A stretch of DNA of 64,000 nucleotides from Candidatus Thorarchaeota archaeon (GTDB taxonomy: Archaea; Asgardarchaeota; Thorarchaeia; Thorarchaeales; Thorarchaeaceae). The first letter of the stretch is position 1, and each line of letters begins with the position of its first letter. Below are positions 17,167-20,489 of the stretch, one piece after another. Both the position numbers and the translations under genes were made by a program. The notes under the pieces were generated by a model. That model had not been told where the DNA came from. It saw nothing but the letters and a program-made list of their open reading frames with translations, and ran no database searches. The DNA lies in the NCBI GenBank assembly GCA_048884965.1, contig JBHLQH010000009.1, forward strand, positions 66,496-130,495, written 5' to 3'.

Positions 17167-17547
17167 ATGTCCGATCCTGTTATGGATGCATATACACAAG
17201 CGTATAATACGTCAGGTCAGATGGTCCAAGCCTTTGGTGTCATAAAAGGCGACGGCTCTGTTCTCTGGCAAAGTAACAACTGGAGTCTAGAAGCTGATGC
17301 TAAGAGCCTAGTTGCAGCTGTAAATAATAGGGCTGCAAGCGTCACTCAGAACCAGGTGAAATACAGCACGATGCGTACAAGCCCAGAAAGCCTTGTTGCC
17401 CGCAGTATTCAAGGCAATGGAATCTTGATTCTTGCAAGGATCGAAGGTGACAAATGGGTCGTCGCGTGGGCGTCCCCGGATGCTGCTCCGGACGGCGTCT
17501 ATGTTGATGTTGACCGTGCTGCAAAATCCCTTAAGGGAAGAATCTAG
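17167..17547 (+). CDS. Profilin (Asgard type), actin-monomer binding protein
   Basis: 126 aa. AFGVI..DGSVLWQSNNW, VKYS, LVA.S..G.G.L, VAW.SPD and YVDVDRAAK follow the pattern of Asgard profilins. SD-like GGGGTGA upstream. Confidence 0.85.
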   Translation: MSDPVMDAYTQAYNTSGQMVQAFGVIKGDGSVLWQSNNWSLEADAKSLVAAVNNRAASVTQNQVKYSTMRTSPESLVARSIQGNGILILARIEGDKWVVAWASPDAAPDGVYVDVDRAAKSLKGRI

Positions 17548-17557
17548 TTCTACGTAT

Positions 17558-17575
17558 GGGGGAACCACTTCCCCC
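17558..17575 (+). terminator. Intergenic stem-loop between the two profilin genes
   Basis: GGGGGAA-CCAC-TTCCCCC perfect 7-bp stem; no strong U tract. Confidence 0.5.
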
Positions 17576-17616
17576 TGAACTTGATTTGAAATTCAAATCT
17601 GAGGTGTGATGATTCT

Positions 17617-17976
17617 CTGTCACTAGATGATATTTGGACGCATCTTTATTCTCATAATAACAAGATTCAGGCCTTTGCAGTGATTAGCGCAGGCAAGATT
17701 GTCTGGCAGACAGACAATTGGAATCTCGTGGACTCTGTTTCATCATTGCTTGAAGGTGTGACAAAACGAGCAGGGACCATCGAAGTATCGAATATTCCCT
17801 ACCAGATCGGTGAAGCGACTGGTGATTCGCTTATCGCAACATCAACAGAGGGGAAAGGTCATGTTCTCATGGCTAAGACAAAGAATGATGCTTGGTTTGT
17901 CGCATGGGCGACGCCAGACTCTATTTCAGACCTCACCATTATCGATCTCAAGTATGCTGCATCCAAGGTGAGGTAG
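17617..17976 (+). CDS. Second, divergent profilin paralog (probable CTG start)
   Basis: The frame is open from 17590. The extension LSLDDIWTHLYSHNNKIQAFAVI aligns with profilin 1. GAGGTG (17601-17606) precedes the CTG at 17617, giving 119 aa. The ORF track starts it at the GTG at 17680. Confidence 0.75.
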   Translation: MSLDDIWTHLYSHNNKIQAFAVISAGKIVWQTDNWNLVDSVSSLLEGVTKRAGTIEVSNIPYQIGEATGDSLIATSTEGKGHVLMAKTKNDAWFVAWATPDSISDLTIIDLKYAASKVR

Positions 17977-18411: not shown

Positions 18412-19146
18412 TTATTTGAATAGGAGATCTCGAATCTTCTTATGAATCTCAATGTATTCCTCATTTCCTAAGGCATACATCTGCAAGAGAAACTCGTACA
18501 TGTCCAGAACATCCTTGTCTGCAACATCGCTACGAATCAGTTTCACAATCTCTTTCCGTGCTGCAAGCTCGATTTTCAAGGCATCAAACCTAAGGTTCTC
18601 GAACCTCTTCTGTTCCTCCTCAGTTATATTGATCTTGAAATGCTGCATCATCTTCTGAGTGACTTTCTCGTTCTTCTTCCTGAGCATCTTCTCATCAGCG
18701 GCACTCAACACTCCTGTGATTAGGACAAAGCCTCCTGCTGTTCGTCTATAGTAATCTGTGGTTCTCTTTCCTGTGGTGACTGTGCCCAGCTTTATCACAT
18801 ACCCCATTTCAATGAGCTTTGGTAAGTGATGATAGACCTGATTCTTGGTCACATTCTCGACATACTCGATGTCTTCTGACATCTTGACAATCTCTACAAC
18901 TGACAGAGCTTTCCTTGTGACCTCACGTTGACGAATGATTGTATCGCCGGTTTCAGGATCCTTCGTCTTGGTGGTCTTTGTATCTTCAACTCCTTTTCTC
19001 AATACTTGAAGGATGGCTAGACGTACGCTATCATCGAGCTCCTTCGCTCGGTCTATATCATATACGAATTCAATATCAGGTACTGCTTTCTTGGCCTCAG
19101 GAGTCAATTCAATGCCTTCCAAGGTGTCGGTTATATCATCGTCCAT
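18412..19146 (-). CDS. Winged helix-turn-helix (ArsR-like) transcriptional regulator
   Basis: L.D.VRL.IL..L, an insertion, then LSV.EI, T.NQVYHHL.KL...G.V and YYRRTA. Confidence 0.8.
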   Translation of the reverse strand: MDDDITDTLEGIELTPEAKKAVPDIEFVYDIDRAKELDDSVRLAILQVLRKGVEDTKTTKTKDPETGDTIIRQREVTRKALSVVEIVKMSEDIEYVENVTKNQVYHHLPKLIEMGYVIKLGTVTTGKRTTDYYRRTAGGFVLITGVLSAADEKMLRKKNEKVTQKMMQHFKINITEEEQKRFENLRFDALKIELAARKEIVKLIRSDVADKDVLDMYEFLLQMYALGNEEYIEIHKKIRDLLFK

Positions 19147-19256
19147 TCTATCACCATTTCAAGTGCTTTATCTCACTATTATCTATAATTGGATGGTATA
19201 TTAAAGTTTTGTTAGATGAACCGTTTTAGGCACGAATGAAAATTACATAATAGTTT

Positions 19257-19297
19257 GGTATACAAACCTTTATATGGAAATGTTGTGGTGTATAAAC
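19257..19297 (+). promoter_or_regulatory. Promoter of micropeptide operon: TATA box flanked by direct repeats
   Basis: TTTATAT at 19269-19275 lies between GGTATACAAAC (19257-19267) and GGTGTATAAAC (19287-19297). Confidence 0.55.
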
Positions 19298-19308
19298 TGT
19301 GAACAATC

Positions 19309-19416
19309 ATGGCGTTAGAAAGCAACTCACGAACCGAATCTGGAACAAAGAACAAGAAGATCGCACAGTCAATCTCGACTGCAGCTATCCGATACGCATA
19401 CGCTTACAGGAGGTAA
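19309..19416 (+). CDS. Micropeptide 1 (35 aa) MALESNSRTESGTKNKKIAQSISTAAIRYAYAYRR
   Basis: Manually translated; ATG about 34 nt after the TATA box; paralogous to the next ORF. Confidence 0.7.
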   Translation: MALESNSRTESGTKNKKIAQSISTAAIRYAYAYRR

Positions 19417-19422
19417 GAAACG

Positions 19423-19509
19423 ATGGCACTTGTTAAGAAGCAAAGCATGAAGCCAAGGAATACGATTTCAACTCAAGCAATACGCTTTTCCTACATCTAT
19501 AATAGGTGA
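19423..19509 (+). CDS. Micropeptide 2 (28 aa) MALVKKQSMKPRNTISTQAIRFSYIYNR
   Basis: Strong SD AGGAGGT (19408-19414); shares MAL...IST.AIR[YF].Y.Y.R with peptide 1. Confidence 0.72.
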   Translation: MALVKKQSMKPRNTISTQAIRFSYIYNR

Positions 19510-19514
19510 TTCAA

Positions 19515-19634
19515 ATGACTCGCGAATCAAGATCCCTGAGCTCAAATGAGCGATTTAACGCAGCATACACCATTGATAAGATTCGCCGGCAAGAAATCAC
19601 GACCAAAGATGTTCTTGAACTAGAGGCGACCTAG
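19515..19634 (+). CDS. Micropeptide 3 (39 aa) MTRESRSLSSNERFNAAYTIDKIRRQEITTKDVLELEAT
   Basis: SD AGGTGA overlaps the previous stop; the ORF ends inside the terminator hairpin. Confidence 0.65.
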   Translation: MTRESRSLSSNERFNAAYTIDKIRRQEITTKDVLELEAT

Positions 19635-19652
19635 TCGCCTCCTTCTCTTTTT
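19623..19652 (+). terminator. Stem-loop plus pyrimidine/U-tract terminator of micropeptide operon
   Basis: GAGGCGAC-CTA-GTCGCCTC followed by CTTCTCTTTTT. Confidence 0.7.
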
Positions 19653-19679: not shown

Positions 19680-20489
19680 CTACTTTCTGAAGACGATTTG
19701 GTAGAATGTGTCATTCATTACGTAGGTGACTTCTACTTCCTTTGCTCTTTCAGGAAGGTATTCCAGAGGTGGTTTGGCGGCAAAGAGGCTATTCGCCTTT
19801 ATGATCTCTTGACCTCTGTCAGTCCCTCGCAGTCTGGGAGAAACTCCCTCATCGATCACAATGACAAATCCATCCTTCTTTACAATTCTGAGCATCTCTT
19901 CTAAGGCTCCGGATATATCTGAGAAAGTATTGATTCCTCCAGTATGTAGCACGATATCGAAGGTATTGTCAGGATAGGGAATATTAAACACACTACCATG
20001 TACAAGATTGATTGTTAGACCGAGCTTCCCTGCTTTTCTTTGGGCAACGTGAAGCATCCCCCATGAGACATCAAGTCCATGCAGATTGAAACGTCCCATC
20101 TTTCCTTTGAATGCACTCTCAAGAGCTTCAAAGTTAGCTGCTGTGCCTATGCTCACGTCAATGATCTTTGACGGACCTTCTATTGGTATGAACTGGGTGA
20201 ATCCTTGTCGTTCCTTGTTTATATCTATATCAAGCCACTCATTGTACTGCTTGACAGCTTCATCATACCCCTCTGCCATCTGATCATATTCCTCAATCCA
20301 TTTCTTGTCCTCGTCGGTCAGATCTGGGAAAAGAAGTGAGGGGATTCCATCAATGATTGGCCAATGATGGCCCTTCTCACAGGTCAAGGATCCGTTATCA
20401 ACGCCATCAGTCTGCTCTGTCACATCTGATATCCTAAGGCCGTTTTTGCATTTTGGACATCGTAGAAGATTAAGGTGTGGTGTTTGCAT
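19680..20489 (-). CDS. Class I SAM-dependent methyltransferase with N-terminal Trm112-like zinc-ribbon domain
   Basis: LLRCPKC...LTCEKGH.WPI.DGIP.L, then IDVSIGTA, GLD.S.GML, PYPDNTFD and EMLRIVK.DG. Confidence 0.85.
   Translation of the reverse strand: MQTPHLNLLRCPKCKNGLRISDVTEQTDGVDNGSLTCEKGHHWPIIDGIPSLLFPDLTDEDKKWIEEYDQMAEGYDEAVKQYNEWLDIDINKERQGFTQFIPIEGPSKIIDVSIGTAANFEALESAFKGKMGRFNLHGLDVSWGMLHVAQRKAGKLGLTINLVHGSVFNIPYPDNTFDIVLHTGGINTFSDISGALEEMLRIVKKDGFVIVIDEGVSPRLRGTDRGQEIIKANSLFAAKPPLEYLPERAKEVEVTYVMNDTFYQIVFRK

Follow-up and report, generated by a model that had tools for sequence, protein, structure and literature searches.

The described systems that come closest in form to the locus reported here are arrest peptides, tiny ribosomal proteins, two-peptide bacteriocins, and the precursors of ribosomally synthesized and post-translationally modified peptides (RiPPs). 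The locus lies in a stretch of 64,000 nucleotides (nt) from a Candidatus Thorarchaeota archaeon (GenBank assembly GCA_048884965.1, contig JBHLQH010000009.1, positions 66,496 to 130,495), which is referred to here as the window. Positions 19297-19652 of the window read as a self-contained translated operon of three micro-proteins, denoted pep1, pep2, and pep3. The peptides constitute a new family to which no kind is assigned; each of the known analogues fails at least one of the defining features that were tested.

Arrest peptides and conserved-peptide upstream open reading frames (CPuORFs) are generally known as short open reading frames (ORFs) whose N-terminus varies and whose C-terminal motif is conserved as far as the stop codon. 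TnaC, SecM, ErmCL, the fungal arginine attenuator peptide, and the CPuORFs of plants are examples. The Thorarchaeota locus has the same form and the same tight coupling to the next ORF, and some of its paralogs lie upstream of transporter genes. It differs in that no gene follows most of the Thorarchaeota cassettes. Purifying selection over the whole length, the presence of paralogs in tandem, and the conservation of a third peptide further set it apart from leaders.

The clade-restricted ribosomal proteins, such as Thx of Thermus and aL45-aL47 and aS21 of archaea, are by general knowledge lineage-specific, very small, very basic, and missed by annotation, and these properties recur here. The Thorarchaeota cassettes, in contrast, are several regulated paralogous operons with an acidic third partner. 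Operons for class IIb or leaderless bacteriocins (lactococcin G, enterocin L50A/B, and aureocin A70, again from general knowledge) resemble the locus in that adjacent paralogous cationic peptides of ~25-45 amino acids (aa) are encoded in one operon, with small-xxx-small packing motifs, aromatic or basic C-termini, and an extra small gene. The Thorarchaeota peptides, however, are hydrophilic and are made without a leader, an immunity membrane protein, or a dedicated exporter. Their cassette is multicopy, family-wide, and part of the core genome with conserved synteny, and there is no sequence similarity to the bacteriocins. RiPP precursors are similar in being small unannotated ORFs with several paralogs per genome and a short motif rich in modifiable Tyr, Ser, and Thr, and a methyltransferase is found near one of the loci. 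The architecture is reversed in the Thorarchaeota peptides, where the C-terminus is conserved and the N-terminus is variable, no modifying enzyme or transporter is conserved, and the distribution is that of a core gene. The likeness to PH1932 of Pyrococcus, a protein of solved structure that is functionally uncharacterized, covers the neighboring regulator gene only. Compared with PH1932, the Thorarchaeota regulator is extended by an acidic N-terminal region and has several paralogs.

Three Conserved Micropeptide Genes

The gap without long ORFs between the minus-strand genes at 18412-19146 and 19680-20489 is 533 nt in length. An initial annotation of the window had described this ~530-nt gap as containing a TATA box and three ATG ORFs of 35, 28, and 39 aa, and all of these features were recovered at the same positions. 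The three ORFs occupy an unannotated stretch of ~350 bases, are all on the plus strand, and all start from ATG. Pep1 (19309-19416; 35 aa) is a basic micropeptide that starts with MAL and carries the C-terminal motif ST.A[ILV]..[AS]Y.YRR. Pep2 (19423-19509; 28 aa) is a basic paralog of pep1, and the two are denoted type A. Pep3 (19515-19634; 39 aa) is denoted type C and has the acidic C-terminal motif [ST].[EK][ED]VL.[LW]EAT. The paralogy of pep1 and pep2 had been proposed from a shared motif with differing codons. It is borne out by an alignment of the 15 C-terminal residues in which 9/15 are identical (BLASTP E 6e-6), and the residues common to the two peptides are encoded by different codons.

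That the ORFs are more than chance occurrences is established by their conservation and not by the sequence of the window alone. Orthologs of the divergent winged helix-turn-helix (wHTH) regulator at 18412-19146 were found in 23/24 genomes of the family. In the DNA that lies divergently upstream of these orthologs, one genus after another has the three ORFs in unchanged order, with matching lengths and C-terminal motifs, although the DNA itself can no longer be aligned. The linkage was counted in named records with enough upstream DNA, using a 45% identity cutoff that was set by eye. The A-A-C cassette (two type-A ORFs followed by pep3) is present upstream of 47/50 ortholog-level regulator loci versus 1/7 paralog-level loci.

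A comparative set of 40 distinct A-A-C triples from many genera was used to examine codon usage. The entropy is 1.1-1.5 bits at the third codon position, 0.7-0.8 bits at the first, and 0.4-0.6 bits at the second, so that the variation at the third position is roughly double that at the other two. Across the cassettes, the invariant Ser, Thr, and Ala residues are encoded by all four codons. The ratio of nonsynonymous to synonymous substitution (dN/dS), calculated pairwise for close orthologs by the Nei-Gojobori method, is 0.07-0.67, with one pair at 0.87. When eight phylogenetically independent pairs were pooled, dN/dS values of 0.17, 0.15, and 0.08 were obtained for the C-terminal motifs of pep1, pep2, and pep3, respectively, and values of 0.36, 0.32, and 0.40 for the variable N-terminal parts. 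The lengths are also maintained, with 35 aa for pep1 in 30/40 cassettes, 28-30 aa for pep2 in 34/40, and 38-40 aa for pep3 in 36/40. By these comparisons, all three peptides are under purifying selection along their whole length, and their ORFs are real, conserved, protein-coding genes. The initial annotation had argued for selection at the protein level, and had named the loss of frames, starts, and motif in relatives, or conservation led by RNA structure, as the outcome that would speak against it. It had also pointed to profile searches and to the DNA next to the regulator orthologs, where the cassette was subsequently found. The dN/dS values, the entropy at position 3, and the synonymous recoding all favor coding, and conservation follows the codon.

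Promoter, Translational Coupling, and Terminator

The inverted repeat GTTTG-N5-CAAAC (GTTTGGTATACAAAC) at 19253-19267 is a candidate operator and abuts the TATA box TTTATAT (19269-19275, plus strand), which was read from the sequence and is kept in orthologs. A second operator-like copy, TGGTGTATAAAC, is found at 19286-19297, past the TATA box and before the start region. The orthologous loci were aligned over the 75 nt that precede pep1. The element GGTT(T/G)G...CAAACC directly before TTATATA is kept across genera, and TTATATA appears ~30-35 nt upstream of the pep1 Shine-Dalgarno sequence and ATG. An TTGGTGTG element follows the TATA box at the same place in most of the orthologous promoters. 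The arrangement looks like that of a repressor-controlled archaeal promoter. A Shine-Dalgarno-like GTGA for pep1 is present at 19299-19302 on the plus strand and belongs to the consensus GTGA(A/T)AA, which is located 8-12 nt before the pep1 ATG in the 40 cassettes.

The Shine-Dalgarno sequence of pep2, AGGAGGT (19408-19414, plus strand), consists of the last two Arg codons of pep1 and the first base of its stop codon, and sits 8 nt before the pep2 ATG. The Shine-Dalgarno sequence of pep3, AGGTGA (19504-19509, plus strand), consists of the last Arg codon and the stop codon of pep2, and sits 5 nt before the pep3 ATG. Both sequences had been recognized in the initial annotation, together with the hairpin and U-tract terminator, and all are present. 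The end of pep1 reads (A/C)GGAGGT(A/G)A in nearly all orthologs, and the end of pep2 reads AGGTAG or AGGTGA. The gap between pep1 and pep2 is 4-8 nt in nearly all cassettes and that between pep2 and pep3 is 0 or 6 nt in 37/40. The tight coupling of the three ORFs follows from the gaps of 0-8 nt and from the location of each stop codon within the Shine-Dalgarno sequence of the following ORF. The Arg-Arg-stop codons of pep1 and the Arg-stop codons of pep2 double as the Shine-Dalgarno sequence of the next ORF; therefore, part of their conservation is at the level of the RNA. In one paralog (C29) from the genome of the window, the terminal Arg-Arg is kept as AGA CGC without a coupled downstream ORF.

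The terminator is an 8-bp hairpin (19623-19641) followed by a T-tract that extends to 19652 on the plus strand. It was located with a terminator scan, in which 2 sites were found versus 0.3 expected in shuffled sequences. The 5' arm of the hairpin consists of the codons for Glu-Ala-Thr of pep3, the stop codon is in the loop, and the hairpin dominates the predicted fold. A comparable stem in many orthologs pairs the Glu-Ala codons with sequence past the stop codon and is followed by a T-run. No Rfam family reaches its gathering score in the region. The sole match below threshold is sR38 (17 bits versus a gathering score of 50 bits, E 0.26), which is on the opposite strand and inside the regulator gene. 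An RNA gene was considered and rejected, because Rfam is empty above threshold and the codon periodicity argues against it.

Distribution of the Family

A type-A profile was built from 32 peptides and searched against 400 genomes of the phylum. Matches were obtained in 83/85 Thorarchaeota-family genomes (1-13 matches per genome) and in 0/315 of the others. With a pep3 profile, matches were obtained in 63/85 and 0/315 genomes, respectively. When 1.84 billion representative proteins were searched exhaustively with HMMER, 39 matches were returned, all of 29-72 aa, and no larger protein in that collection carries the motif. The exact peptides of the window are absent from a collection of 15 billion proteins, in which one ortholog is listed as a "hypothetical protein". 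No usable match to the peptides was found in Pfam, NCBIfam, PADLOC, PHROGs, the PDB sequences, or the ESM Atlas, in agreement with the initial annotation, in which the family was not recognized. The cassette has no matches in plasmid, phage, or IMG/VR collections, and a literature search on small proteins of Asgard archaea and Thorarchaeota returned nothing relevant. Within the genomes and libraries that were searched, the peptide family is confined to Thorarchaeota.

Some of the database matches are 69-72 aa in length and were considered as Rosetta-stone fusions of pep2 and pep3. The contigs give these proteins only when TAG is read as Gln, and they are therefore gene-calling artifacts of no weight. 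The proteins in question (P0022, P0025, P0042, and P0044-P0046) are pep2 read through its TAG stop codon into pep3. They come from short contigs, including the European Nucleotide Archive (ENA) metagenome contigs of loci L137 and L138, and may mislead any inference that is based on fusions.

One genome deposited as "Candidatus Hermodarchaeota" (L146, record JBHLLF010000013.1) contains a regulator ortholog of 53% identity and a full cassette. This cassette is nearly identical to the copies in genus g3 of the Thorarchaeota, and it is likely that the genome is taxonomically mislabeled or the contig mis-binned.

Paralogous Cassettes

The cassette, beyond what the initial annotation described, belongs to a multigene family of which a Thorarchaeota genome has about four to seven copies, and the genome of the window (G000) contains at least seven. 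The window copy and those on contigs C81 and C53 have the A-A-C arrangement. The pair of type-A ORFs is followed directly by an MFS transporter ORF in place of pep3 on C1, by two unrelated 40-aa ORFs and then an MFS gene on C11, and by a terminator on C29. A divergent A-A pair is found on C32. The copies on C40 and C62 are fragments at contig ends. Such breaks are due to recent copies that are nearly identical, since assemblies break at repeats.

The neighborhoods of ~28 cassettes were surveyed in six genomes. Pfam was run on the MFS, zinc-ribbon, and GNAT neighbors in G000, and the other neighbors were named from their ORF sequences. The paralogs fill about six loci, each of which is syntenic across genera. 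The first, that of the window copy, is beside the wHTH regulator and a methyltransferase. The second precedes the genes for a 485-aa MFS transporter and a zinc-ribbon protein, the third is between an ScpB-like gene and an MFS gene near ScpA/SMC, and the fourth is downstream of a PolX-like gene. The fifth is near S12/S7/EF-1alpha and beside GNAT, and the sixth is near superoxide reductase/rubrerythrin and a zinc-ribbon protein. Because these loci are syntenic across genera, the cassettes are ancient paralogs and not mobile elements. A mobile element had been considered from the copies at contig ends in G000, which have ~100 nt of common upstream DNA; it is ruled out by the cross-genus synteny, and the empty plasmid, phage, and IMG/VR searches point the same way.

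Most cassettes end at a terminator without a downstream gene on that strand. On C11 and in three other genomes (G342, G009, and G372), type-A ORFs head a chain of coupled small ORFs that runs into MFS genes. Some lineages keep just one A-type ORF or lack pep3, which is found in 0/5 of the genus g5 set. No regulator paralog is located beside any of the other cassette loci, where the upstream motif differs and consists of GTGACC repeats.

Several further features of the paralogs were observed. The GTGACC/GGTCAC hexamers are repeated upstream of the TATA box in cassettes of the "ATVVR" subfamily (in G000 at C81:1310-1380, C40, C11:1-50, and C1:227880-227945). They recur within the long multi-ORF leaders before MFS genes, as in the C11 leader (L086:280-350) and L136, and could be the binding site of another regulator or an RNA motif. 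At C1:228149-228480 of G000 (L081:5204-5540), an MFS_1/MFS_3 ORF starts right after the second A-type stop codon. Homology to the N-terminus of the G372 ortholog runs ~55 codons upstream of the first ATG of this ORF, and the ~55-codon stretch contains no ATG, GTG, or TTG. The arrangement suggests either a noncanonical start (CTG or ATT, ~7-15 nt past AGGAGGT) or strict termination-reinitiation. The genus g3 loci L028 (G023), L068, L076, L146, and L194 contain a fourth ORF of 35 aa ~110 nt upstream of pep1, which ends in ESLYYDYCAWR and looks like a divergent extra type-A paralog. Cassettes of the form A-A-A-C are found in genus g7 (L035, L066, and L079).

Peptide Chemistry and Predicted Structure

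All three peptides are hydrophilic, with a grand average of hydropathy (GRAVY) of -0.7 to -0.8 and a maximum 15-aa Kyte-Doolittle hydropathy of <=1.1. No hydrophobic or transmembrane (TM)-like window is present in pep1-pep3, which sets them apart from type I toxins and membrane micro-proteins. The mean net charges of the two type-A N-terminal parts are +3.6 and +5.0, and that of the pep3 C-terminal part is -2.2. The conserved block is the C-terminal 11-13 residues, and the N-terminal halves are variable. The conserved residues of the type-A peptides are at positions i, i+1, i+4, i+5, and i+7 (Ala-[ILV]-x-x-[Ala/Ser]-Tyr-x-Tyr), a spacing that places them on a single helical face with a small-xxx-small pair. 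A small-[ILVM]-xx-small-[YFH] pattern is found in 76/80 type-A peptides. Cys is almost absent from them, and the tail after the Tyr differs in length (YR, YNR, YRR, or YREV). The last residues of pep3 are [LW]-E-A-T in 31/40 cassettes, and its final residue is Thr in 39/40.

Two known C-terminal or docking motifs were examined and rejected. The HbYX proteasome-docking motif is found as the exact C-terminus in 15/40 pep2, 0/40 pep1, and 0/40 pep3 sequences; pep2 of the window ends in YNR. The PIP box, Q-x-x-[ILM]-x-x-[FYW]-[FYW], is found in 0/120 peptides.

The structure was predicted with AlphaFold2 using a proxy. The ORFs of G023 are in the same frame, and the two stop codons were read through (NCBI table 6) to give an artificial chain of 109 residues, which was aligned with 29 equivalent rows. 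The mean predicted local distance difference test (pLDDT) score of the read-through chain is 76.9. Helices are predicted over both type-A peptides and the pep3 motif, with pLDDT values of ~75-92 over the motif helices. One helix runs straight across the pep1-pep2 junction, which is an artifact of the construct. The prediction gives good support for helical peptides, and their packing is neither supported nor refuted by this run.

Proposed Function and Alternatives

The reading favored here, which is plausible if still somewhat short of probable, is that pep1-pep3 are helical micro-proteins that are co-produced in fixed proportions, associate with one another, and act together in trans. A ribosome that ends one ORF would re-initiate on the next, so that a single short mRNA under repressor control would yield the three peptides in a set ratio. 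Each of them would be mostly one alpha-helix. The two basic type-A helices would present a small-[ILV]-x-x-small-Tyr face followed by Arg, and pep3 would supply an acidic amphipathic helix (EEVL.LEAT). The conserved C-terminal helices may then pack into a small hetero-oligomer (A/A'/C), from which the positive N-terminal tails of conserved length would contact a target that is either a polyanion or a protein. With each paralogous cassette under a promoter of its own, different conditions would call up different versions of the module. Action in trans is proposed because most cassettes stop at a terminator without a downstream gene, and because the N-terminal halves are constrained in sequence and length, with conserved charge.

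Several points weigh against this proposal. Thorarchaeota are uncultured, and the transcription, translation, and assembly of the peptides are predictions from sequence. The predicted template modeling (pTM) score of the AlphaFold2 chain is 0.31, which corresponds to no confident packing of the three helices, and the pep2-pep3 "fusions" that could have supported a physical association are artifacts of reading TAG as Gln. The trio is not obligatory, as the lineages with a single A-type ORF or without pep3 demonstrate. The loci in which A-A is followed by small ORFs and an MFS gene instead of pep3 suit a cis-regulatory role.

Such a cis-regulatory role is the alternative that survives best, and it is judged unlikely. 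The peptides would be leader or ribosome-arrest peptides, whose nascent C-terminal motif, located in the exit tunnel at or near termination, would set re-initiation on the next ORF. The next ORF would be pep3, or the MFS transporter in the paralogous loci, and the response could be to a small molecule. In keeping with this mechanism, conservation is concentrated in the 11-13 residues that precede the stop codon, and for pep3 this is strict. The peptides are 26-40 aa in length, which is generally known to be near the capacity of the ribosome exit tunnel. Every stop codon is embedded in the next Shine-Dalgarno sequence with gaps of 0-8 nt, the C1 MFS ORF follows the pep2 stop codon without a canonical start, and other chains of A-type ORFs run into MFS genes. 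The window copy, however, has no downstream gene in cis, since it ends in a terminator and the next gene is convergent; MFS genes are found in the paralogous loci, and most cassettes are likewise closed by a terminator and have no further gene downstream on that strand. The N-terminal halves are under purifying selection with charge and length kept, and the tandem paralogous A-type ORFs are almost always retained, whereas a simple leader needs no tandem. The type-A tail is variable in length, unlike motifs that must be in register with the peptidyl-transferase center. To our knowledge, no such leader or arrest-peptide mechanism has been described in archaea. It is doubtful, to the same degree, that the A-A-C cassette is an archaeal nascent-peptide sensor that gates termination-reinitiation onto pep3 or a transporter.

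Rather less likely still is that the peptides are lineage-specific micro-proteins that bind the ribosome or RNA/DNA, with the basic A peptides in contact with nucleic acid and the acidic pep3 as partner or chaperone. This is a special case of the trans model in which the target is specified. An equally novel alternative to the nascent-peptide sensor would be a micro-protein heterotrimer peculiar to Thorarchaeota that forms part of the ribosome or chromatin and has so far escaped notice. The A peptides are strongly basic and hydrophilic, end in Arg, and have conserved Tyr and Arg residues. They are encoded in nearly every genome of the lineage within core syntenic regions, including one beside S12/S7/EF-1alpha, and the promoter and Shine-Dalgarno signals are close to consensus. 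Against such an assignment, five to seven paralogous cassettes per genome at differing locations, lineages with a single A ORF, and a dedicated repressor-type promoter would be unusual for structural ribosomal proteins, and the library searches revealed no similarity to any ribosomal protein or nucleic-acid-binding family.

Export of the peptides is improbable. They would be either a pair (A + A') like the leaderless two-peptide bacteriocins, assisted by a third peptide, or RiPP precursors whose modifying enzymes are encoded elsewhere. By analogy, such a pair is suggested by the adjacent paralogous cationic peptides of 26-36 aa and the third small gene in the operon; the A-A tandem in nearly all cassettes, the GxxxG-like small-xxx-small helix motif, and the net positive charge are all features of bacteriocins. 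MFS transporters follow some of the paralogous cassettes, the C-termini are Tyr-rich, and a methyltransferase is beside the window copy. The peptides, however, are hydrophilic, with a hydropathy maximum of <=1.1, unlike membrane-active peptides, and pep3 has no TM segment. Neither a signal peptide nor a double-glycine leader, an immunity-type membrane protein, or an ABC exporter is conserved among the ~28 surveyed cassettes, and the family-wide synteny in the core genome is not that of a strain-variable trait. The suggestion of RiPP-like precursors in the initial annotation is disfavored, since no modifying enzyme is conserved and the conserved part is the C-terminus and not an N-terminal leader; Cys, moreover, is almost absent from the A peptides. 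No RiPP-modifying enzyme is conserved beside the ~28 cassettes, in a survey that covers enzymes encoded next to the peptides. The Pfam run on the cassette neighbors in G000 returned MFS, GNAT, nitroreductase, TPR, and ATC_hydrolase and no RiPP enzyme.

The weakest reading, that the ORFs are not genes but chance occurrences within a conserved noncoding RNA or promoter region, has in its favor that gene callers missed them, that the exact window peptides are absent from the 15-billion-protein collection, and that the ORF ends overlap RNA signals (the Shine-Dalgarno sequences and the terminator stem), but it is very improbable and is effectively refuted by the comparative data, namely the three-base periodicity of variation, dN/dS values well below 1, the synonymous recoding of invariant residues, starts, stops, and lengths that are kept across genera whose DNA can no longer be aligned, and the lack of any Rfam family at gathering score in the region.

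Neighboring Genes

The divergent gene on the minus strand (18412-19146) encodes the 244-aa winged-helix regulator, a homolog of PH1932. Weak Pfam matches to HTH_5 and HTH_20 were obtained, and a profile of 14 regulator orthologs matches the PDB entries 1ULY/2CWE of PH1932 over residues 98-239 (E 1e-8). This regulator probably controls the window copy of the cassette. The initial annotation had linked the peptides to the regulator and had named them as its possible partners. The link holds at loci of the window type (47/50) and does not extend to the peptide family as a whole, in which about five other cassettes per genome have no adjacent regulator; it is therefore unlikely that the peptides in general serve as partners of this regulator. 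Three regulator paralogs of ~40% identity (L040, L043, and L048 in G003, G001, and G012, respectively) are divergent from genes for PAS-domain-like proteins and not from cassettes, which suggests that the regulator family is repeatedly paired with different divergent targets.

The gene at 19680-20489 on the minus strand is convergent to the peptide operon and encodes a Trm112-like zinc ribbon and a class I S-adenosylmethionine (SAM)-dependent methyltransferase. It matches Methyltransf_11 and Trm112p in Pfam and Trm112_arch and a UbiE-like family in NCBIfam. The gene keeps the same position in orthologous loci and is absent from all of the paralogous cassettes. A functional link to the cassette was dropped despite the conserved synteny, because the gene is convergent and is absent from the paralogous cassettes. 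The protein is a natural fusion in which a zinc ribbon resembling Trm112 precedes a UbiE/Methyltransf_11 domain; Trm112 usually occurs as an activator subunit in its own right.

Two profilin-like genes lie in tandem at 17167-17976 on the plus strand. The first has a weak Pfam match to Profilin (E 4e-4) and the second has no Pfam match. The pair is syntenic in G372 (L133).

Significance

Small proteins are charted less well than any other part of archaeal proteomes, and no characterized small protein of Asgard archaea, the lineage group closest to eukaryotes, was found in the literature that was searched. A whole operon family, present in several copies in essentially every Thorarchaeota genome, has been missed by standard annotation. 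The cassette is a clean lineage marker for Thorarchaeota. With ~100 residues in total, it is also a compact and synthesizable system for the study of micro-protein assembly or nascent-peptide control in an Asgard context. If the peptides act in cis, arrest-peptide biology would be extended to Archaea, and a nascent-peptide sensor would be the first translational control of the arrest-peptide or CPuORF type described in that domain. If they act in trans as helical micro-proteins, a lineage-specific cellular target would be implied. The intergenic "gaps" in Thorarchaeota genomes hide conserved genes.

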